A stretch of DNA of 43,399 nt, from assembly GCA_010093995.1 (NCBI GenBank), contig ML992516.1, positions 433,413-476,811 on the forward strand, written 5' to 3'. Position 1 is the stretch's first letter, and every line of letters begins with the position of its first letter. A model generated the notes under the pieces. It did no database searches. It saw nothing but the letters and a program-made list of their open reading frames with translations, and was not told where the DNA came from. A program made the translations under genes and the position numbers. The stretch is from Elsinoe ampelina (taxonomy: Eukaryota). Of this stretch, positions 33,009 through 43,399 are shown piece after piece.

Positions 33009-33809
33009 GTCTATGTCAGGTCTTGTTGGCCCGACTACTTTCGTGAGGAGGAGGTTGGTGAAAGGTGGAAAGTAGAAGTGTGAGTGCCTGATGACACAAG
33101 ATCGAGACGCGAAGAGACGTGTTGAACTGACGTAAGTAAACAGCATGTGATACTTCAAGTGAAGAAGATCGCCGTGAGCATGTGATCTCGGGTTTGCTGC
33201 TTCTCCTTCACATGTCAGAATCGCTCACGAGCCAGAAACATCAGGTATGCATCTTGATGGCTTCCTTCGGATTGTCGTACCCTCATTGAAGAGACCATGG
33301 CGGGCCATCAGCAGTCAAGGATACCAACCAATCAAAAAGCTCGGCGTTAAATACGTAGAACTATAATTCCTCTGATTAATGTAGTCGACTGAAGATCCAA
33401 GAAGACTTCCATACAGCCCGTTGCGGTGATCTTTCGCCACGGTGGAAGAAAATAGCACAAATCTCACCTGGCCTTGTACGAAGTCGGATCTTCACATTCT
33501 GGCGATTTACATGTGCTTGAATATTTCCCACGTGCTTCGTCATGCTTTCACAATAATGCCATGACAATAATAAGCCTGTTGAGTCGACAATGGCTGGACT
33601 TCTATTGTAGACAATCTCAATTGAGCCTCACAAGCTCTACAGTCGTTTTGAGTTCAACCGAGCCACCCCGGGCTTGGCGTGTTGTACTCCGCGTCGACCT
33701 CTCGTTATCAAATTTGGCTAGCTAGAAGTCCATAGAGAATACTGATAAATTAAAGCTGAAAAAAGGTGTAATAGTCGCTATACTGCTCTAATTAGGTTGT
33801 TACTATTAT

Positions 33810-34810: not shown

Positions 34811-35076
34811 AGGGGATCTATTTAGTACGTAAGAAATTACTTATATTAAATAAGTTTAATACTAAGACCTAGTAAAAACTCTTTACTACTACTATAACTA
34901 CTCTATACTATATATATACTACTCCGAGTTAGATAAACTAAGTCTAGTTTAGTAGCCGAACTAGATTAATATCTATCTTAGCCGCTGAGCTAGTTAAATT
35001 GTCTATTATACTACGTAAATTAGTATCTATATCGGCTACTATAAACTAGGTAAAAGTGCCTATTTTAACTGCTAAG

Positions 35077-35539
35077 TATTACGAACTGTCTAAACATAGC
35101 TTACGCTAGTAGTCTAAGCTAAGCTAAGAACGAGATAGTTCTACTTCTATAGTAGTATAGTACTAAGGTAAGAGTTAGAGAAGGTATATCTTATAGATAA
35201 TAAAGTACAATTAGATAGTATTATAAAGGCTAGCCTTAGTAATACTAGTGTTCGCTATCTAGACAAGGTTAACTATAGTACTTATATAAGATAAGGACTA
35301 CTCCTATATATATATATTCTTTACTATATACTTTATATACTCTATATACTCCGTAGCAAGAGTTAGAGGTAATATAGAGTATATGCCCGCTAGTAACCTA
35401 CGTGCTCTATAGTCTCTAGAGTAGAGCTACTAGAGAAGATAGAGAACTAAGTAAACATCGGGCTAGGTTATATAATAACCTTAGTAGTTTAATTAGTCCT
35501 AATATCTTTATACTTTAGCTATCCTACTAGTTTATAATA
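35077..35539 (-). repeat. 3' LTR (copy A), 463 bp
   Basis: tattacgaact...agtttataata, a RIPped form of TGTTACGAACT...AGTTCGTAACA; colinear with copies B and C. Confidence 0.93.
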
Positions 35540-35613
35540 TTACTCTTCTCCCTTAATCGAGTTATTCTAACGAGTAAGTATTCTTTCTTATCCTTATACG
35601 CTATATACTAAAT

Positions 35614-35953
35614 ATACCTCCTAGTTGTCGAAGGTATAGTAAATCTAGTATATCTATATAAAAGAATCTCTCGGAGTTTATTAAACTATTTAGAACTAAT
35701 ATGCTATAAGCTTACTCTTATTATAAGTCGAAAGAGCTAAACTATAAAGTCTATATTCGGTTAGGTATTTATAGCTAGTATGTTATAAGTAACTACTCGA
35801 GTTATAATATTTAGGTAATAAAATTAGAATAGTAGTATCTCTAGTCTAAGTATATTTATTTATAAAAGGAATTAGTTATAGCTAAGGCTACTAGAAGGGA
35901 AGCTAAAGAAGCTTATAAAAAGGTAAAAGAGGCTTATTAAAGAGCTATAGGTA
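35614..35953 (+). pseudogene. RIPped antisense accessory ORF of the Gypsy element (putative Zn2Cys6-like motif + coiled coil), copy 1, truncated by gap
   Basis: Same frame and offset (75 nt from the LTR) as 43060-43399; only TAA/TAG stops; see findings. Confidence 0.6.
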
Positions 35954-36923
35954 NNNNNNNNNNNNNNNNNNNNNNNNNNNNNNNNNNNNNNNNNNNNNNN
36001 NNNNNNNNNNNNNNNNNNNNNNNNNNNNNNNNNNNNNNNNNNNNNNNNNNNNNNNNNNNNNNNNNNNNNNNNNNNNNNNNNNNNNNNNNNNNNNNNNNNN
36101 NNNNNNNNNNNNNNNNNNNNNNNNNNNNNNNNNNNNNNNNNNNNNNNNNNNNNNNNNNNNNNNNNNNNNNNNNNNNNNNNNNNNNNNNNNNNNNNNNNNN
36201 NNNNNNNNNNNNNNNNNNNNNNNNNNNNNNNNNNNNNNNNNNNNNNNNNNNNNNNNNNNNNNNNNNNNNNNNNNNNNNNNNNNNNNNNNNNNNNNNNNNN
36301 NNNNNNNNNNNNNNNNNNNNNNNNNNNNNNNNNNNNNNNNNNNNNNNNNNNNNNNNNNNNNNNNNNNNNNNNNNNNNNNNNNNNNNNNNNNNNNNNNNNN
36401 NNNNNNNNNNNNNNNNNNNNNNNNNNNNNNNNNNNNNNNNNNNNNNNNNNNNNNNNNNNNNNNNNNNNNNNNNNNNNNNNNNNNNNNNNNNNNNNNNNNN
36501 NNNNNNNNNNNNNNNNNNNNNNNNNNNNNNNNNNNNNNNNNNNNNNNNNNNNNNNNNNNNNNNNNNNNNNNNNNNNNNNNNNNNNNNNNNNNNNNNNNNN
36601 NNNNNNNNNNNNNNNNNNNNNNNNNNNNNNNNNNNNNNNNNNNNNNNNNNNNNNNNNNNNNNNNNNNNNNNNNNNNNNNNNNNNNNNNNNNNNNNNNNNN
36701 NNNNNNNNNNNNNNNNNNNNNNNNNNNNNNNNNNNNNNNNNNNNNNNNNNNNNNNNNNNNNNNNNNNNNNNNNNNNNNNNNNNNNNNNNNNNNNNNNNNN
36801 NNNNNNNNNNNNNNNNNNNNNNNNNNNNNNNNNNNNNNNNNNNNNNNNNNNNNNNNNNNNNNNNNNNNNNNNNNNNNNNNNNNNNNNNNNNNNNNNNNNN
36901 NNNNNNNNNNNNNNNNNNNNNNN
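35954..36923. other. Assembly gap (970 N)
   Basis: Run of N. Confidence 1.
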
Positions 36924-39455
36924 AACTCCTAGTAGATCTATAAATAATTACTAGAATTGTAACGTAAATAGCTTATCTCTATCGGTTATTAGGTCTCGTA
37001 GTACTCTATATTATAAAATAATTATTCGGAGGAAGATAAAGGCTATATCCTTAGTAGTTACTATTGTCTTATATAGTACAAAGTAGTAATACTTCGTAAA
37101 TCTATCTACTAGAACTAGAATGCTATTATACTTTACACCTATAAGAGGTTCTTCTAATAGTAGTAAAGGTTCTATAAAGTCTATTGTAACTAATTACTAT
37201 AGTTTATCTAGTAGTAGCAAGAGTTATAATAGACTATATAGCTTATGTCGTAAGTGCTTAGACTTATAGTATATATTACATATAGTAATATATGTCTTAA
37301 TATCGTTTTAGAGTTCTTTCTATAGGTAGTTTTATATAATAAGTTTAATAGTCTTATTAATCCTACTATGCTCTACTATTAGGTTATTATAGTATATTTA
37401 AATAACTTCTTTCTTCTATTCTTACGTAAGCTTCTAGGTAAGGCTATATAACTACTCTACCTTTAGGTACTTATAGACTAGAGTACTATCTTACTACTTT
37501 AGTATAGAGGCCTCTATTATTATTATATTCTTTAAGTAATTTAGTCGTTAGCTAAGAGCGTCTACTCTACTATTCTCTAATCCCTTAATATAGTAGATCT
37601 AAAAGTTGTAGCTTATAAGTGTTTCTAACTATCGAACCTATTATCTATTAAGAACCTTAGTTATTGTCTAATATAATAGGTTCTTATAGTCGGTGTAGAC
37701 TTATATAGGTAAGATTATTCCTTCTAGGTATACTCTCTATTTGCGGAATGCCTCTATAATTATAAGTAACTCCTTATTATATATATTATAGTTAAGTTTA
37801 AGTCTAGTTATTTTTTGTAAGTAGTATATAATTAAGTAGCGTTATTCTTTTACGTCCTTCTATACTAGATACACTTCTATTATAAAGTCTAAGGCATTCG
37901 TTTCTAGTAGTACTTATTAGTCTAGGTCGAAGAGTACTAGGATAGGTGCTATTATAAGTCTAAGCTTTAGCTCCTTAAAGGCCTATCTATATTTCTTATT
38001 AAAGACAAATCTAGTTTCTTTCTTTATAAGGTTAGATATTAGCGCTACTACCTTAGAGAATTCTTTAACAAACTTGTAGTAGTAGTTAAAGAACTCTAGT
38101 AGCGCTTAAACCTTCTTAACTATAGTAGGTTCTAGCTAGTCGTTTACTAACTTAATCTTTTTTAGGTCGGGTTTAATACTATTAGTAGATATAACATAGT
38201 CTAGAAATTGTATCTTATGTTTATAAAACTTATACTTAAAGAGCTTTACTAGTAGGTCTTTTTCTTTTAGTTTCTATAGCACTTTATAAATATATCCTAC
38301 ATGTTTATTATATATCTTTAAGAAGATAATAATATTGTCTAAATATACTAAGATAAAGTCGTCGAGGTATTCTTATAGAGTATTATTAATTAACTCTTAG
38401 AAGGTTATAGAAGCGTTAGTTAACCTAAAGAGTATAACGAGGTACTTATATAGACTCTATTACGTTCTAAAAGCCGTCTTCTACTCCTTACTCTCCTTTA
38501 TTTATACTTAATAATAGGCGTCTCTAATGTCGATTATAGTAAACTATTTAGCTCTAAGTAGTCGGTCTTAAAGTTTGTTAATCCTTAGTAGAGAATAGTA
38601 ATTCTTTCTAGTAAGTACATTAAGTTTCTAGTAATTAATATATATTTATAATATTCTATCCTTTTTAGGTATAAAAAGCACTCCGTATGTAATAGGTAAT
38701 TTTAATAGTTATATAAATCCTTTAAGTAAGTACTTATCGATATAGTTCTTAAGAACGTCCTTCTCTTATTTTAATAGTAGTATAAGACCTTAATAGTGTA
38801 TTAGGGATTTACTCTCTTTAAAGAGTATTTCGTAATTCTATAGTTTATATTAGAGTAAGGCTATAATGCCTTTTCTTTCTTTAAATAAGTCCTTAAAGTC
38901 TTTATATTTCAGCGGAAGTACTTAATCGCTTATACTAGTAATAGCTCTAACTATTAGTCGTACCTATACTATCCTTATAGTTAGTATCTATAGAGCTAAT
39001 TATACTCTCTATGTCTTATAATTATACTTAGAGAATTTAAGTGTTTCTTTAATCTAGTTTATGTCTAGATTATGTTATTAAAGCTAGTCTATACTAAGTA
39101 CTATATTGTACTATATGTCTACTATATCGATTAATTATTTTTCTATATATGTTTTAATTTTAATTATAACGTTCTATAGTTCCTAAGTAACTTTCCTATT
39201 CTTCTCTATAGAGGTTCTATTCGCTATAGTAAGTAAGTAAGGTAACTCCTTCTAATATTAATAAGGTTTAAGCTAATTAGCAATTGTTATAGAGATATAG
39301 CTACGGTTAGCTCCTAAATCTATTATTGCTCTTACCTTACTCCCTTATATTTCGACTTCTAGTATAAAGTAGTTTAATATATAGATCTTTATTATATTAA
39401 GGCTTTAGCTAGTGTTATTATCTTACCTTATCGAGCAATAACTAGCTAGTTTTTT
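36924..39455 (-). pseudogene. Gypsy pol relic (protease, RT, RNase H, integrase; 3' end in gap)
   Basis: De-RIP motifs: IDSGANRSYIS (~39295-39330), KTAFRT (~38470), YLVMPFGLTNAP (~38410-38445), EYLDDF..YLDDIIIF (~38325-38372), ETDASDF (~37890), DKELLAI (~37765), YTDHKNL (~37690), integrase HHCC region (~37260-37380), MDFIEPLP (~37165-37185). Confidence 0.9.
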
Positions 39456-41434
39456 GTTATTATAGCTCCTTAGATAAGTAGCTAATTCCTTTCTATATAT
39501 ATCTACTATTAGTACTATATCTATTAGGCAAGTTATGTTTTGTTACTGTTTAATATAGTAAGGTAAACTTCTAGCGCCTAAGTCCCTTAGTAACTATAAA
39601 GTCTAATAATTCTCTACTAGTTATACTAAGTAGTGTTATATACCTATATTAGTATAACTATTCTTTCCGGGTGTAGCTAGGTATTAGCATTAAAGATAAA
39701 AACAAGTTATGTAAATTTGTCTTATTATATCCTATTTTAGTAGTAGGTGTATATTATTATATAATTCCTCTATATCTCTATAAGGTATACTTTAAGTCGT
39801 CTACCTAGTAGTAGTACGTTATTATTATTATTGTTATTAGATAAGTCCTTATCTATGTTATTATATTATAGTTATTTAGTATATTCTTCGTTATATTTCT
39901 CTTTGTCGCTACTACCCCTAGTATAGTTATAGTTAGTAAGGCTATACTAAGTATATTCTCTTACTTAGCTATAGGGGATAGTACTATCTATTTCAATTAC
40001 CGAGAAGTCTATAGTGTATTTAAGACTAATAGCGTCTTCTCTAAGTACGTCGTATAAGTAGATAGTATAGTACTATTTACAATTTAGATTTGTATATTTC
40101 TAGAGTAATATATAATATACCTTTCCTTGTAGTTCGCTATAAAGGCTAAAGGTAAGGCTACTATATTATTATATAGCACTTACGTTCTAATACTTCGTCT
40201 CGATAATCGTATATTAGTAATTGTTACTAACTACCTTCTAAGGTTAGTTACTATTACTACTAATTATAGAAAGCTCTTCTAGGTTAAGTTTCTAGTCTAG
40301 CTATTTTATTAGTTACCTACGCTTAGATAGCTTATATAGGAACTAACTAGATTCTTACTTGTCTAATAAGTAAATATAATAAGAGTTATTATAATATACT
40401 ATCTATAATAGCGTCGCGTATTAGCTTTATTATTTACTATTAGTTATAGAGATATTAAGCGTAATATCCGGAGAGGATTCTACTATCTCTCGAGCTATCG
40501 TAGACTTCTTTTATATTTCCTTACCTACGCTAAAGGTCGTTAGGTCTTCTATAGTAGTATTAGCCTTTTTCTCTACTAGCCTAGTAACTATTATATGTAA
40601 TTTATTAGCTAGCGCCTCTTATCGGTAGTCTCTAGCTCGATATCTAGGTCTTTTACACTTAAAATATAAGTTATCTTATCTATACTTCTCTCTCTCTTTT
40701 CTACTAAGGAACTTTCCTCTATAGCTATAACTTTGTATCTATAAGGAGTAGCCTTTACGTATAGTATTAAGTTCTATAGGGTCTCTATAGTTTTAAGAGG
40801 AACACGTATATCTAGTATTTACCTTATATTCTCTATAACGTTCTATATATCGTTTATAAAGTTTATTATTAATAGCAATTATAGTGTCTACTAGTTCCTA
40901 AAGGCTATCGAGTAGCTCGGGTATTATTTAGTCTTTAACTAAGTCGCTTAGTCCTTAATAGAATACTAAGTATTTAGTACTATCGTCCTAGTCTAGATAT
41001 ATTACAAGTTATTAGAACTAGGAATAGTACTAAGCTATAGACCTACGTTGTTATAGTTGTCAAATCTTTATTATAGTAATGCGTTTCTTATTAGATACGT
41101 TAAAGACTTACTTAATCTTTGCCTAGAAGATACTAAAGCTCTTAAAGATAGCCTTTATATCTAGGCCTAGTTATCTATCTAGGTAGCTACTTATATAAGG
41201 CTTAAACTACTCGAAGGTAGCGCCTTTAAGGTATATTCTAGTATAGAGGACCTTTACTACGTCGTTAGTATACTTGTCTCTCTCTAGAGCAAAGAAGGCT
41301 TTAAGTTAAACAAGAAAGCGCCTTAAGTAGGCGTAGTCCCTATAGAAGAGTTCTACTTCTAACTTAGGCTTACTCTATCCTTCTATACTAAAAGACCTTC
41401 TATATTTGCTCGAGGTTAAACTAGTAGTAGATAT
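39446..41434 (-). pseudogene. Gypsy gag relic, ~660 codons
   Basis: One frame from a probable start (ATA from ATG, 41434) through ELFxGDxAxLRRFLVQLKAFF (~41290-41360) and CCHC knuckle CFKCxRPGHRARDC (~40625-40670) to AAC TAG at 39451-39446. Confidence 0.8.
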
Positions 41435-41550
41435 GTCGTTAATAGTAAGCTTTCCTAGCTTACTAGCGATTAAAGATACTAATAGTAACTTAGAGTAAGA
41501 GTTACTTATTAACCTTGTAGCGTGCTATACTATAGTAAGGGTAGTTAAAA

Positions 41551-42013
41551 TGTTACGAACTGTCTAAATATAGCCTACGCTAGTAGTCTAAGCTAAGCTA
41601 AGAACGAGGTAGTTCTACTTCTATAGTAGTATAGCACTAAGGTAAGAGTTAGAGAAGGTATATCTTATAGATAATAAAGTATAATTAGATAGTATTATAA
41701 AGGCTAGCCTTAGTAATACTAGTGTTCGCTATCTAGACAAGGTTAACTATAGTACTTATATAAGGTAAGAACTACTCCTATATATATATATTCTTTACTA
41801 TATACTCTATATACTCTATATACTCTATAGCAAGAGTTAGGAGTAATATAAAGTATACACCTACTAGTAACCTATGTACTCTATAGTCCCTAGGGTAGAG
41901 CCGCTAGAGAAGATAGAGAACCGGGTAAATATTAGGCTAGGTTACGTAATAACCTTAGTAGTTTAATTAGTCCTAACGTCTCTACGCTTTAGCTGTCCTA
42001 CTAGTTCGTAACA
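41551..42013 (-). repeat. 5' LTR (copy B), 463 bp
   Basis: Intact TG...CA ends with 11-bp inverted termini TGTTACGAACT / AGTTCGTAACA. Confidence 0.95.
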
Positions 42014-42522
42014 CTAAGATAGTAAGGTATCTAACTTACTTAATTCGATCTAGCTCGTATAACTATCTTAGAGTAATACTAGCGCTTAAAAGAGCTAATT
42101 TAGCTTTAAATCTAGTATAGAAGGCCTTTATTAAAGGCCTAGGTATCTCTCTACCTATCTAAGTATATACCTCTTATACTATCGAGGTTGTAATTCTTCT
42201 TCTTTAGCTTAAATTTAACCTAATCTAGTACCTAAATATCCCTTTTAAAGCTTCTCTTTCTCTTTATCTACTTAAAGAATTTAGTTAAAACTTTATAAGA
42301 GTTAGCCTTAGAGGTAATAGGTAAGGATCTTAAGTTATTTATAGGCCCTAAGCACTACTATAGCTAGTAAGAAGCAATCGAGTTTATAATATTAATATAG
42401 TTAATAGGTGTTAAAGGGAGTATAAAAGGCACTAAAGATACTAAAGACATTAGTGTTAGTAGTGTTAGTAGAGCACTTTTAATACTCCTCGAGGCCTTTA
42501 AGTAATTAAGGCTTAATATAAG

Positions 42523-43399
42523 TGTTACGAACCGTCTAAACATAGCTTACGCTAGTAGTCTAAGCTAAGCTAGAAACGAGGTAGTTCTACTTCTATAGTA
42601 GTATAGTACTAAGGTAAGAGTTAAAGAAGGTATGTCTTATAGATAATAAAGTACAATTAGATAGTATTATAAAGGCTAGCCTTAGCAATACTAGTGTTCG
42701 CTATCTAGACAAGGTTAACTATAGTACTTATATAAGGTAAGGACTATTTCTATATATATATGTTCTCTATTACGTTCTCTATATACTCTATATACTCTAT
42801 AGCGAGAGTTAGAGGCAATATAGAGTACACGTCTACTAGTAACCTACGTACTCTATAGTTTTAGAGGTAGAGCTACTAGAGAAGATAGAGAACTAAGTAA
42901 ATGTTACGCTAAGTTACGTAATAATCTCGGTAGCTTAATTAGTCCTAACGTCTCTATATTCTAGCTATCCTACTAGTTTGTAACATTACTCTCCTCCTTT
43001 AATCGAGTTATTCTAACGAGTAAGTATTCTTCCTTATCCTTACGCGCTATATACTAAATATGTCTCCTAGTTATTAAAGGTATAGCAAATCTAGTATATC
43101 CGTACGAAAGAATCTCTCGGAGTTTATTAAACTATTTAGAACTAATATACTATAGGCTTATTCTCGTTGCAAATTAAAGGGGCTAGACTATAAGGTCTAT
43201 GTTCGGTCGGGTATCTATAGCTAGTATATCGTAAGTAACTACTTAGGTTATAATATTTAAGTAACAAAATTAGAATAGTAGCGTCTTTAGTCTAAGCATA
43301 TTTGTTTATAAAAGGAATTAGTTATAGCTAAGGCTACTAGAAGGGAAGCTAAAGAAGCTTATAAAAAGGTAAAAGAGGCTTATTAAAGAGCTATAGGTA
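42523..43399 (-). mobile_element. Second copy of the same Gypsy family: 3' LTR (copy C, 42523-42985), PPT and adjacent internal region; partial
   Basis: TGTTACGAACC...TTTGTAACA, 463 bp; PPT AAAGGAGGAGAG at 42989-43000; 42986-43399 colinear with 35540-35953. Confidence 0.93.
43060..43399 (+). pseudogene. RIPped antisense accessory ORF, copy 2 (ATG retained)
   Basis: ATG at 43060; ..AYSRCKLKGLDYKVYVRSGIYS*YIVSNYLGY.. then AKATRREAKEAYKKVKEAY*RAIG. Confidence 0.6.

Follow-up and report, generated by a model that had tools for sequence, protein, structure and literature searches.

The antisense gene brtn, reportedly described by Zhao et al. (2011, Virology 417:248), is the closest precedent for the locus reported here, likened to it by description and not by sequence. 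It is an additional gene of the Boty-like Ty3/gypsy elements of Botrytis cinerea and Sclerotinia (PMC8365987, PMC7264820, PMC4227169, PMC5987419). In the accessible portions of these papers, brtn resembles the accessory ORF of our locus as an extra antisense gene between pol and the 3' LTR of a fungal chromodomain Ty3/gypsy element, and the same portions mention no Cys cluster for it. Plant Ty3/gypsy elements also carry antisense ORFs between pol and the 3' LTR; those of Grande1, RIRE2, Retand and PvRetro13 share the place and orientation of the fungal ORF and are conserved within families, but they belong to another kingdom and to other element lineages, are likened here by description, and come with no mention of a zinc-cluster domain in the accessible part of the review that lists them (PMC7264820). 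That part of the review gives no function for antisense extra ORFs, although decades have passed since they became known in plant elements and Boty (PMC7264820). The first-pass annotation of this DNA, made from the letters alone, stated that such an ORF had no characterised function, which is fair; an antisense gene at the same position had, however, already been published as brtn of Boty. In the literature searched, which covers subscription journals thinly, we found nothing relevant on antisense ORFs of zinc-cluster or Zn2Cys6 type carried by LTR retrotransposons. Antisense ORFs between pol and the 3' LTR were thus known already, and to these the present family adds a recognisable six-Cys/coil module.

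The window (the whole stretch of DNA that was analysed, 43,399 nucleotides) holds two copies of such an ORF. Comparison with homologues leaves very little doubt that positions 35614 to 35953 represent the 5' half of a RIP-inactivated accessory gene, which in one lineage of fungal Ty3/gypsy chromoviruses is found in antisense orientation after the chromodomain end of pol and before the 3' LTR. The element and its neighbour are laid out as follows.

35072-35076, no strand: target-site duplication CTAAG, left, of element 1; an identical pentamer lies at 42014-42018, immediately outside both LTRs
35077-35539, minus strand: 3' LTR of element 1, 463 nt (three-way alignment and repeat families)
35540-35556, minus strand: polypurine tract of the minus-strand element, abutting the 3' LTR and pyrimidine-rich on the plus strand (direct reading)
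35614-35953, plus strand: antisense accessory ORF, copy 1, 5' 113 codons, RIP-degraded, with 9 stops and ATG changed to ATA (family profile and codon table)
35713-35805, plus strand: copy 1, region of the six-Cys cluster (the matching family columns hold Cys in 43-47 of 47 sequences)
35954-36923, no strand: run of 970 N, covering what remains of the accessory ORF (at least about 80 codons) as well as the pol 3' end, judged from the family length of 160-230 aa and from pol homology, which reaches 36924
36924-41550, minus strand: gag-pol of element 1, RIP-degraded (Pfam on the minus frame, X at stops)
about 37257-37421, minus strand: integrase zinc domain (Integrase_H2C2) of element 1 (Pfam)
about 37608-38000, minus strand: RNase H (RT_RNaseH) of element 1 (Pfam)
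about 38196-38585, minus strand: RT (RVT_1) of element 1 (Pfam)
about 39210-39359, minus strand: protease (Asp_protease_2) of element 1 (Pfam)
41551-42013, minus strand: 5' LTR of element 1 (three-way alignment and repeat families)
42014-42018, no strand: target-site duplication CTAAG, right, of element 1, matching the left pentamer
42523-42985, minus strand: 3' LTR belonging to another member of the element family, one that continues past the window end (alignment and repeats)
43060-43399, plus strand: antisense accessory ORF, copy 2, ATG kept, 9 stops; it ends with the window (family profile)

The carrier is a minus-strand Ty3/gypsy element. The pol of a relative aligned to the window gag-pol with 32% identity over 680 aa (tblastn, E 3e-85). 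With regard to chromovirus features, the protease, RT, RNase H and integrase zinc domains are seen in the window; the end of the integrase core and the position of any chromodomain lie under the N run. The ORF frame was found where the first-pass annotation had placed it, between pol and the 3' LTR and opposite gag-pol: it starts on the plus strand at 35614, and the pol domains are on the minus frame. Its distance from the LTR, previously given as 75 nt, is 74 nt, as the LTR ends at 35539. The termini of this 3' LTR are TATTAC and ATAATA, against TGTTAC and GTAACA in the other copies; LTRs of metagenome relatives also end in GTAACA, and in at least 22 relatives a pyrimidine run follows the same LTR end. 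Among the reads of run X5, one piece aligned, on the LTR only. None of the reads of a presumed RNA run (X20, same species label) aligned to the stretch.

Both copies of the accessory ORF bear the marks of RIP. Copy 2 is collinear with copy 1 at an offset of 7446, and 44 of 400 positions differ between them, every one of the 44 by a transition; transitions also account for 114 of the 115 variant places in a genomic read run (X1). The RIP indices are 2.0 for TpA/ApT and 0.17 for (CpA+TpG)/(ApC+GpT), compared with 0.56 and 1.28 in the GC-rich part. Transition-only differences, TpA excess and loss of CpA/TpG identify this DNA as a product of RIP, the origin that had been proposed for the damage. 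It had also been observed that TAA and TAG are the only stops of the frame. This is a property of the whole 8.7-kb RIP block (2 TGA against 924 TAA plus TAG) and not of the ORF frame. The start codon is ATA at 35614 in copy 1 and ATG at 43060 in copy 2. In other genomic copies, sampled through the reads, G at 35616 (that is, ATG at 35614-6) makes up 87% of depth, CGA stands at 35863-5 in 82%, and CGT at 35836-8 in 86-93%. At the five Cys codons that are still Tyr, no G appeared among the best 40 of 119 variants, a result that we regard as neutral. Both window copies are dead pseudogenes; RIP has killed the gene in each, and therefore nothing is made here.

Could the Cys-like spacing be an accident, with no gene behind it, in RIP-mutated, non-coding DNA that separates pol from the LTR and is rich in Tyr codons? 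Several features of the window fit such a reading. When Tyr is accepted in place of Cys, the 17,350 codons of the RIP block contain the Zn2Cys6 spacing 7 times (5 independent places), so the spacing by itself is at chance level in this Tyr-rich DNA. Stops in the merged copies are no fewer in the ORF frame than in two other frames (9, 9 and 7). Furthermore, a word-based homology search with the window ORF returned no match, and a Pfam scan of the same ORF with X at stops found no domain. Homologues, however, raise the antisense ORF above chance. A HMMER search of 1.84 billion representatives recovered six proteins (E 1.3e-7 to 7.5e-4, query residues 7-111), five of them 175-208 aa long and the sixth an 81-aa fragment. 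A profile search then extended these to 47 family members, and a second search, with 28 matches, added only 3 and no new named organism, for a family of about 50 proteins of 160-230 aa in all. Run against the window, the family profile matched the ORF frame and no other, with 41.1 bits for copy 1 (4.6e-14, profile positions 7-112 of 194) and 60.8 bits for copy 2 (4.1e-20). Intact orthologous ORFs occupy the same place in related elements in 22 cases, and the window's Tyr codons and stops fit the family column by column, Tyr becoming Cys or His and stops becoming Arg or Trp. Given the HMMER homologues, the frame-specific profile match and the column-by-column fit, we rejected the chance pattern, which we consider extremely improbable.

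The six Tyr codons that had been proposed to derive from Cys did resolve to Cys in relatives. In copy 1 they start at 35713, 35722, 35743, 35770, 35779 and 35803, all now encoding Tyr, and the matching family columns are Cys in 47/47, 46/47, 44/47, 46/47, 43/47 and 43/47 sequences, in that order. The single Cys said to be directly preserved is indeed in the window, at the second position of copy 2 (TGC at 43168). The spacing of the family, C-x2-C-x6-C-x8-C-x2-C-x6-8-C, fits the C-x2-C-x6-C-x5-12-C-x2-C-x6-8-C consensus. The reconstruction had been declared open to refutation if consensus codons turned out to be residues other than Cys; this happened only outside the proposed six, where Tyr 35752 aligns with a family His (46/48) and Tyr 35836 with a family Arg (47/49). 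Similarly, the stops at 35659 and 35812 align with Arg (37/39 and 38/47) and the stop at 35830 with Trp (31/49).

Intact members share five parts in a fixed order: a basic N-terminus; a conserved helix, SSTxRRxxLxxFIxxFG; the six-Cys cluster, with an invariant V-H-x-x-S-G between the third and fourth Cys; a single helix of about 95 residues; and an acidic tail that ends in a conserved aromatic motif, LSPxTWSAxxGxPDxFW. No protein named brtn or attributed to Botrytis or Sclerotinia was present among the 47 and 28 family matches, most of which are nameless. A viral contig collection gave 3 pattern matches, none of which was confirmed.

Genomic context was assessed in 32 metagenome loci that carry the ORF. 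In 28 of these it faces the chromodomain end of pol tail to tail, on the opposite strand, as the check proposed at first pass, an antisense position between integrase and 3' LTR in relatives, had anticipated; in two of the remaining 4 loci gag is next to the ORF, pol being deleted, and two are too short to tell. Neighbouring ORFs in relatives read PR-RT-RH-IN-SH3-Chromo, with gag-CCHC beyond, and a chromodomain was present in 9/9 relatives examined. The ORF starts 44-113 nt from the conserved GTAACA LTR end and polypurine tract, and its 3' end overlaps that of pol by -9 to +185 nt. Another concern raised in advance was that the region might be the reverse complement of an integrase or chromodomain frame; no other frame matches, and the pol of relatives ends beyond the 3' end of the ORF. 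An intact ORF with an MP start is present at 22 of the 32 loci.

We next consider selection on these ORFs. The dN/dS ratios of the closest pairs are 0.10 (L012/L015), 0.15 (L006/L014) and 0.13 (L009/L012); such a comparison had been proposed as a check. Of 153 pairs, 16 have dS below 2, with a median ratio of 0.36. Pairs of ORFs have a median identity of 0.46, compared with 0.51 over the C-terminal 270 residues of pol, and the two identities track each other (r 0.47, reached in 5 of 2000 permutations). These comparisons indicate that the accessory protein is under purifying selection. Because the Cys cluster and tail motifs are also kept across members that are 33-46% identical, the protein, and not the RNA alone, is selected. 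For the region after the LTR, RNAalifold predicted no pairs from an alignment, owing to loops of unequal length; the part next to the polypurine tract is a candidate stem-loop region. The U3 regions of the LTRs contain dense arrays of short repeated motifs of the GAGCA/TGATCA type. By position, strand and conservation, the gene belongs to the class of antisense ORFs between pol and the 3' LTR.

In the AlphaFold2 model of an intact member (pLDDT 85), a short helix begins at each CxxC pair, and residues 82-176 form one helix with pLDDT 98-99. Structural neighbours listed by Foldseek are almost wholly Zn2Cys6 proteins (Pho7, Hap1, Ppr1, Put3, Leu3, Gal4, Lac9, AlcR and Cep3), with a core rmsd of 1.8-2.8 A over 31-36 residues; the best E was 0.25, and there was no match at E 0.001. 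The predicted fold thus points weakly to Zn2Cys6. The proposed scan for Pfam Zn_clus (PF00172) membership came out negative: at the gathering cut-off of 21 bits, 0/49 members pass, the best (P0047) reaching 16.9 bits. Zn_clus is nevertheless the Pfam family that most members touch weakly, 18/49 doing so at E up to 1. A sequence profile search of the PDB returned no Zn2Cys6 protein, only coiled-coil noise. The nearest Pfam model by sequence for one subgroup is DUF3716 (PF12511, cut-off 22 bits), which one of the 49 members passes (P0014, 22.9 bits); another six score 15.3-19.5 bits, and 11/49 match at E up to 1. The alignment spans the whole Cys cluster, positions 3-59 of 59. According to the accessible part of the source, this domain occurs in REP9-1 and REP9-2, accessory genes of an IS3EU-type DNA transposon of Zymoseptoria tritici; like the cluster of our family, this fungal domain (about 59 residues) is rich in Cys and found in accessory genes of transposons, but its carrier there is a DNA transposon and not an LTR element (PMC8232023).

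In the homodimer model, the score was 0.48 against 0.00 for the best control, runs agreed in 100% of contacts, and partner pLDDT was 86; the mark applied to such scores is reached by 21/30 solved one-chain pairs and 0/23 solved single chains. The helix after the cluster is accordingly modelled as a dimerisation helix, in antiparallel arrangement (contacts of 88 with 151, 95 with 137-144, and 113 with 120), which would put the two Cys clusters at opposite ends. The geometry of Gal4-type dimers is unlike this. Gal4, Ppr1, Put3, Hap1, Leu3 and Pho7 share with the family the six-Cys spacing, the short CxxC helices, a dimerising helix directly after the cluster and an acidic tail. In contrast to these factors, which are encoded by host genes, the accessory proteins are retrotransposon-encoded, much smaller (about 190 aa), and have an extra conserved N-terminal helix besides the antiparallel dimer model. 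Classical Zn2Cys6 factors are more basic between the second and third Cys than this family is, and they feature a middle homology region, for which no Pfam match was found in the accessory family. The proposal that the element encodes its own small antisense protein, six Cys followed by a coil, is therefore supported by the 28 of 32 loci, purifying selection, AlphaFold, Foldseek and the dimer model.

We hypothesized that the protein regulates the element that encodes it. Its mRNA would start at a putative promoter in or next to the 3' LTR and run into the element; the six Cys would bind two zinc ions per chain in a Zn2Cys6-like manner; chains would dimerise through the long helix, as modelled; and in the nucleus the protein may bind DNA and regulate, in an element-specific manner, the LTR of its own family. 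We hold this mechanism tentatively, at a little under an even chance, and are evenly divided over the whole explanation that joins it to the identity of the accessory gene. Small fungal activators have the order basic N-terminus, cluster, dimerising helix and acidic tail, and acidic aromatic tails are more typical of activators. Because of its acidic, aromatic tail, an activator is more likely than a repressor. A bolder version, which we find somewhat unlikely, is that a fungal chromovirus lineage encodes its own minimal Zn2Cys6-type transcription factor, a counterpart of the retroviral trans-activator that binds the GAGCA/TGATCA-type U3 arrays and switches the element on; its antiparallel coil could bridge distant sites or two LTRs, and the DUF3716 of DNA-transposon accessory genes would fall in the same regulator class.

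Alternatively, the protein may be real and yet no DNA-binding regulator, its zinc module being structural and its coiled coil and aromatic tail serving as an adaptor for Gag, integrase/chromodomain or a host factor, with possible roles in nuclear entry, particle assembly, integration-site choice or silencing evasion. Neither sequence nor fold matches DNA-binding Zn2Cys6 domains significantly, the antiparallel model separates the clusters by ~95 helical residues and so seems ill-suited to a short palindromic site, and the conserved C-terminal aromatic motif resembles a peptide-docking motif. The weak likeness to DUF3716, which according to the accessible text also occurs in accessory genes of a Zymoseptoria tritici DNA transposon, would suit an adaptor as well (PMC8232023). 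Yet the top structural neighbours are almost all DNA-binding Zn2Cys6 domains, the order of parts is that of small fungal activators, and the dense U3 motif arrays need a binder; we consider an adaptor unlikely. The gene could also act as a brake, either through an element-encoded repressor for copy-number control or through an antisense transcript that down-regulates gag-pol RNA, with the protein secondary. Such a transcript would match the 3' end of the genomic RNA with full complementarity. Overlap of the ORF with the end of pol reaches 185 nt, and other LTR elements have self-limiting factors, such as p22 of Ty1. A brake is harder to reconcile with a protein sequence under strong constraint (purifying selection, dN/dS 0.10-0.15), with a Cys cluster and tail motifs that such divergent members have kept, and with a tail more typical of activators, and we regard it as improbable.

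Returning to an element-specific regulator as the preferred reading, the family has a recognisable module (six Cys, dimerising helix, acidic tail) conserved across elements whose pol is about 40-50% identical, and this makes the function of an antisense ORF addressable through zinc content, LTR DNA binding, LTR reporters and transposition of marked elements. Should it prove to regulate its own LTR, the protein would count as a transcription factor encoded by a fungal retrotransposon, and would offer a handle on how such elements escape host silencing or time it. The outcome for the window itself is modest: both copies are RIP-killed pseudogenes. There is also a lesson for annotation in a family that has no Pfam domain: nearly all members are nameless or hypothetical, one is mislabelled as an efflux-pump subunit, and the UniRef name of P0047 is 'Zn(2)-C6 fungal-type domain-containing protein'.

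The AT-rich block that runs from ~33,750 to the window end (GC 27-33%) bears the signature of repeat-induced point mutation (RIP): TpA/ApT is 2.0 versus 0.56 in the GC-rich part, and (CpA+TpG)/(ApC+GpT) is 0.17 versus 1.28. The change is abrupt, with a gene-like region of ~52% GC (1-33,500) giving way to the RIP-type block at ~33,500-33,750. The block contains the following features.

35077-35539, LTR of 463 nt, 3' LTR of the minus-strand element 1
35614-35953, plus strand, copy 1 of the accessory ORF
35954-36923, N run of 970 nt, covering the end of pol
41551-42013, LTR of 463 nt, other LTR of element 1
42523-42985, LTR of 463 nt, start of a second element that continues past the window end
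43060-43399, plus strand, copy 2 of the accessory ORF

The two LTRs of element 1 are flanked by the pentamer CTAAG and therefore delimit a single insertion of 6,937 nt. Its coding strand is minus, and the minus frames, with stops read as X, contain Asp_protease_2, RVT_1, RT_RNaseH/RT_RNaseH_2 and Integrase_H2C2 (Pfam). A pyrimidine run at 35540, directly adjoining the LTR, is the complement of a polypurine tract, which together with the coding strand identifies 35077-35539 as the 3' LTR, as the first-pass annotation had placed it. The first 414 internal bases of the second element (42986-43399) are collinear with 35540-35953 at an offset of 7446. The N run starts exactly where the last base of the window has its homologue, so both ORF copies break off at the same codon, and neither shows how the ORF continues or where pol ends. 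Between element 1 and the next element, which is of the same family and orientation, lie ~500 nt (42014-42522) that are similarly AT-rich and gave no alignment to the internal sequence of the element.

The accessory ORF begins at 35614, with 74 nt between it and the LTR; the first codon of copy 1 is ATA, and copy 2 retains ATG. Over 113 codons, either copy is interrupted by 9 TAA/TAG stops, and the copies differ at 44 of 400 positions, all 44 by transitions. We aligned contigs from two sequencing runs of one sample with the same organism label to the window at a likeness of at least 80% (3,174 and 1,819 aligned pieces); in one run (X1), 114 of 115 variant places were transitions. The best-supported 40 of 119 variant places gave the codon states of other genomic copies: G at 35616 in 87% of depth restores ATG, CG at 35863-4 in 82% makes the present stop a former CGA, and CG at 35836-7 in 86-93% makes the present Tyr a former CGT.

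The absence of stops other than TAA/TAG, to which the first-pass annotation had pointed, is real but is a property of the whole block (2 TGA versus 924 TAA+TAG) and weak by itself. The binuclear-cluster spacing, with Tyr allowed for Cys, occurs at 5 independent places in the block's 17,350 codons, and it too is a weak argument as a pattern, its weight being carried by homologues. With the copies merged, the ORF frame has 9 stops, as many as the next frame (9) and more than one minus frame (7). On pattern and stop counts alone, we judged a chance reading to be the probable one; the homologues later overturned it.

A word-based search found no homologues of the window ORF. HMMER, run with copy 2 carrying X at its stops against 1.84 billion representatives, returned 7 proteins at E ≤0.001. 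Six (E 1.3e-7 to 7.5e-4) span nearly the full query, from residue 7 to 111; five are 175-208 aa long and one is an 81-aa fragment. The seventh, of 3,873 aa, matches by its coiled-coil part only. A profile of four intact homologues found 47 proteins and a wider profile 3 more. An alignment of 49 family sequences shows a basic N-terminus, the conserved helix SSTxRRxxLxxFIxxFG, and then M-P/V-x-x followed by C-x2-C-x6-C-K/R-V-H-V/I-R/K-S-G-x-C-x2-C-x6-8-C. After this cluster come D/N-V/I-R/K-V/I-T/S-x-x-E-W/F-x-R-L, a long heptad-like stretch, AEEAIAVEE and a tail with LSPxTWSAxxGxPDxFW. One member (P0043) is named by its source 'multidrug efflux pump subunit AcrA (membrane-fusion protein)', an assignment that is probably wrong and prompted by the long coiled coil.

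When both window copies were added to this alignment, the proposed former Cys codons at 35713, 35722, 35743, 35770, 35779 and 35803 fell in columns that are Cys in 47/47, 46/47, 44/47, 46/47, 43/47 and 43/47 members, the few Tyr coming from other RIP-like degraded members. Window Tyr codons at 35752 and 35836 align to His (46/48) and Arg (47/49) columns, and window stops at 35659, 35812 and 35830 to Arg (37/39), Arg (38/47) and Trp (31/49) columns; all of these changes, those at the six Cys codons included, are C-to-T or G-to-A. A profile HMM built from the alignment without the window sequences, run on the whole window translated in six frames, matched copy 1 (41.1 bits, 4.6e-14) and copy 2 (60.8 bits, 4.1e-20), both over positions 7-112 of 194 and ended by the N run or the window end, and matched no other frame. 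The column fit and the frame-specific matches thus confirm the proposed frame and the reconstruction of all six cysteines, and together with the homologues they refute the reading that there is no gene. Judged by sequence, copies 1 and 2 are pseudogenes of this family, and the gene is dead in the window.

We found that the family occupies a fixed place in its elements. Scanning JGI metagenome contigs with the most conserved peptide of the family yielded 32 confirmed loci (L001-L032), counting two contigs too short to place pol (L002, L030). The C-terminal part of pol lies on the opposite strand right after the ORF at 28 of the 32 (tblastn with the pol of a relative), while L021 and L022, identical in sequence, have gag there instead. 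By Pfam, nine neighbouring long ORFs encode protease, RVT_1, RNase H, Integrase_H2C2, rve, SH3_Tf2-1 and a terminal Chromo domain, and three upstream ORFs encode Retrotrans_gag and zf-CCHC. The accessory ORF and pol are convergent, their 3' ends ranging from 9 nt apart to a 185-nt overlap. In all well-preserved loci the ORF is preceded by the LTR terminus GTAACA, as in the window LTRs, and then the complement of a polypurine tract; the LTR end lies 44-113 nt from the ORF start in relatives versus 74 nt in the window. The window pol matches that of L019 (32% identity over 680 residues, E 3e-85), and the window element is therefore of the same chromovirus lineage.

As had been proposed, the element family encodes an antisense protein gene, which is borne out in the relatives by intact ORFs and low dN/dS. 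The ORF is intact, with 173-213 codons starting MP, at 22 of 32 loci; several of the 10 broken loci are low in GC with Cys-to-Tyr changes as in the window (L003, L004, L024, L032). dN/dS (Nei-Gojobori) is 0.10 for L012/L015 (dS 0.46), 0.15 for L006/L014 and 0.13 for L009/L012, with a median of 0.36 over the 16 of 153 pairs with dS <2. Because the ORF lies mostly outside the pol overlap, selection acts on its own product. Median pairwise identity is 0.46 for the ORF versus 0.51 for the last 270 pol residues, and the two correlate (r 0.47, equalled in 5 of 2000 permutations), a pattern that fits a long shared descent better than repeated capture. The family is a conserved antisense gene of a fungal chromovirus lineage, with a Zn2Cys6-like cluster and a helix modelled as dimerising.

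Pfam gave nothing above threshold across the 49 members, save for one. More members touch Zn_clus (PF00172) than any other family (18/49 at E ≤1); the best score is 16.9 bits against a cut-off of 21, which none passes. DUF3716 (PF12511) aligns across the whole cluster in 11/49; one member passes (22.9 versus 22 bits) and six others score 15-19.5 bits. A profile search of PDB sequences gave coiled-coil noise only. P0047 (Lithohypha guttulata) carries the UniRef label 'Zn(2)-C6 fungal-type domain-containing protein', and in the ESM Atlas the family falls among unnamed Ascomycota clusters of 62-122 members. AlphaFold2, run on the 49-sequence alignment (mean pLDDT 85), predicted a helix at 23-37, short helices at 46-51 and 65-70, each beginning at a CxxC pair, and one long helix at 82-176 (pLDDT 98-99). 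Foldseek against the PDB gave no match at E ≤0.001 (best 0.25); Zn2Cys6 proteins (Pho7, Hap1, Ppr1, Put3, Leu3, Gal4, Lac9, AlcR, Cep3) made up the majority of the better-ranked matches to the full model and all among the matches listed for the domain-only model (pLDDT 70), the compact core superposing at 1.8-2.8 Å over 31-36 residues. Since spacing and predicted local fold agree, we call the domain Zn2Cys6-like, a label short of formal family membership.

A homodimer model of residues 20-180, zinc included, scored 0.48 versus 0.00 for the best of three controls, a mark reached by 21/30 proteins solved as one-chain pairs and by 0/23 single chains. Contacts were 100% alike between runs (partner pLDDT 86). 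The predicted pairing is antiparallel (88 with 151, 95 with 137-144, 113 with 120), unlike Gal4-type factors, which form parallel dimers. The dimerisation-like coil suggested to follow the cluster is upheld in the models.

Within the element, only the 3' LTR and the 44-113 nt separating it from the start codon precede the ORF, so the accessory mRNA would have its start in one of these. Its protein would bind zinc, dimerise and bind DNA, its basic N-terminus may serve nuclear entry, and its acidic, aromatic tail may act in activation or docking. As a target, the family's own LTR would be the most economical choice. The U3 parts of the LTRs of 18 relatives (L005-L029) are densely set with short motifs: within the final 230 nt, GAGCA/TGCTC occurs 5-12 times at 9 of 18 loci (shuffled maximum 2-4), TGATCA 3-6 times at 6 and a CACGTG box at 12. 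We tentatively favor an element-specific DNA-binding regulator of the LTR; that the protein is instead a non-DNA adaptor seems rather unlikely, and that the gene acts as a brake more unlikely still. Motif type varies by element subgroup, and RIP-worn look-alikes can be seen by eye in the window U3 (~35400-35460).

Antisense ORFs between pol and the 3' LTR are known already, and the accessory family, itself almost wholly unannotated, is a variant of that kind. As described in papers citing Zhao et al. 2011 (PMC8365987, PMC7264820, PMC4227169, PMC5987419), brtn of Boty (Botrytis cinerea) is an antisense gene at the same position, and we liken it to the accessory ORF by position and orientation. 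The plant elements Grande1, RIRE2, Retand and PvRetro13 are also described with an antisense ORF there, and a review gives their function as unknown (PMC7264820). Our literature search, covering few of the subscription journals, found no report of an LTR retrotransposon whose antisense ORF encodes a zinc-cluster or Zn2Cys6 protein. An IS3EU-type DNA transposon of Zymoseptoria tritici is reported to carry DUF3716 in two accessory genes (PMC8232023), a hint that Cys-cluster proteins borne by transposons may form a wider class.

Several metagenome contigs (L013, L014, L015, L019) close with an exact repeat, 127-174 nt long, of their own start (periods 6057-6906 nt), and others have the accessory ORF central with pol on either side; these look like collapsed-LTR assemblies of circularly permuted units and are no evidence for circular DNA. 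L022:9563-11970 (the same in L021) is a pol-less derivative of ~2.4 kb. Between its two LTRs, 95% alike at a spacing of 2084, lie an intact accessory ORF of 175 codons and, on the opposite strand, a truncated gag. Its protein (P0007) is recorded on 5 contigs, so a non-autonomous form keeping the accessory gene may have multiplied.

A stem-loop lies between polypurine tract and ORF start, 15-21 nt past the LTR end (L014:179-201, L012:4627-4644), with a stem of 5-9 bp and a pyrimidine-rich loop (TCCT, TCC, CCC or CCT). Its offset is constant in 22 of 25 loci (among L001-L031) and the stems come in ~14 different sequences, so that it is the pairing and not the sequence that is conserved. The element RNA carries it immediately 5' of the polypurine tract, and the accessory mRNA would carry it in the 5' leader; in the RIP-mutated window (35540-35590) only a 6-bp stem remnant can be drawn.
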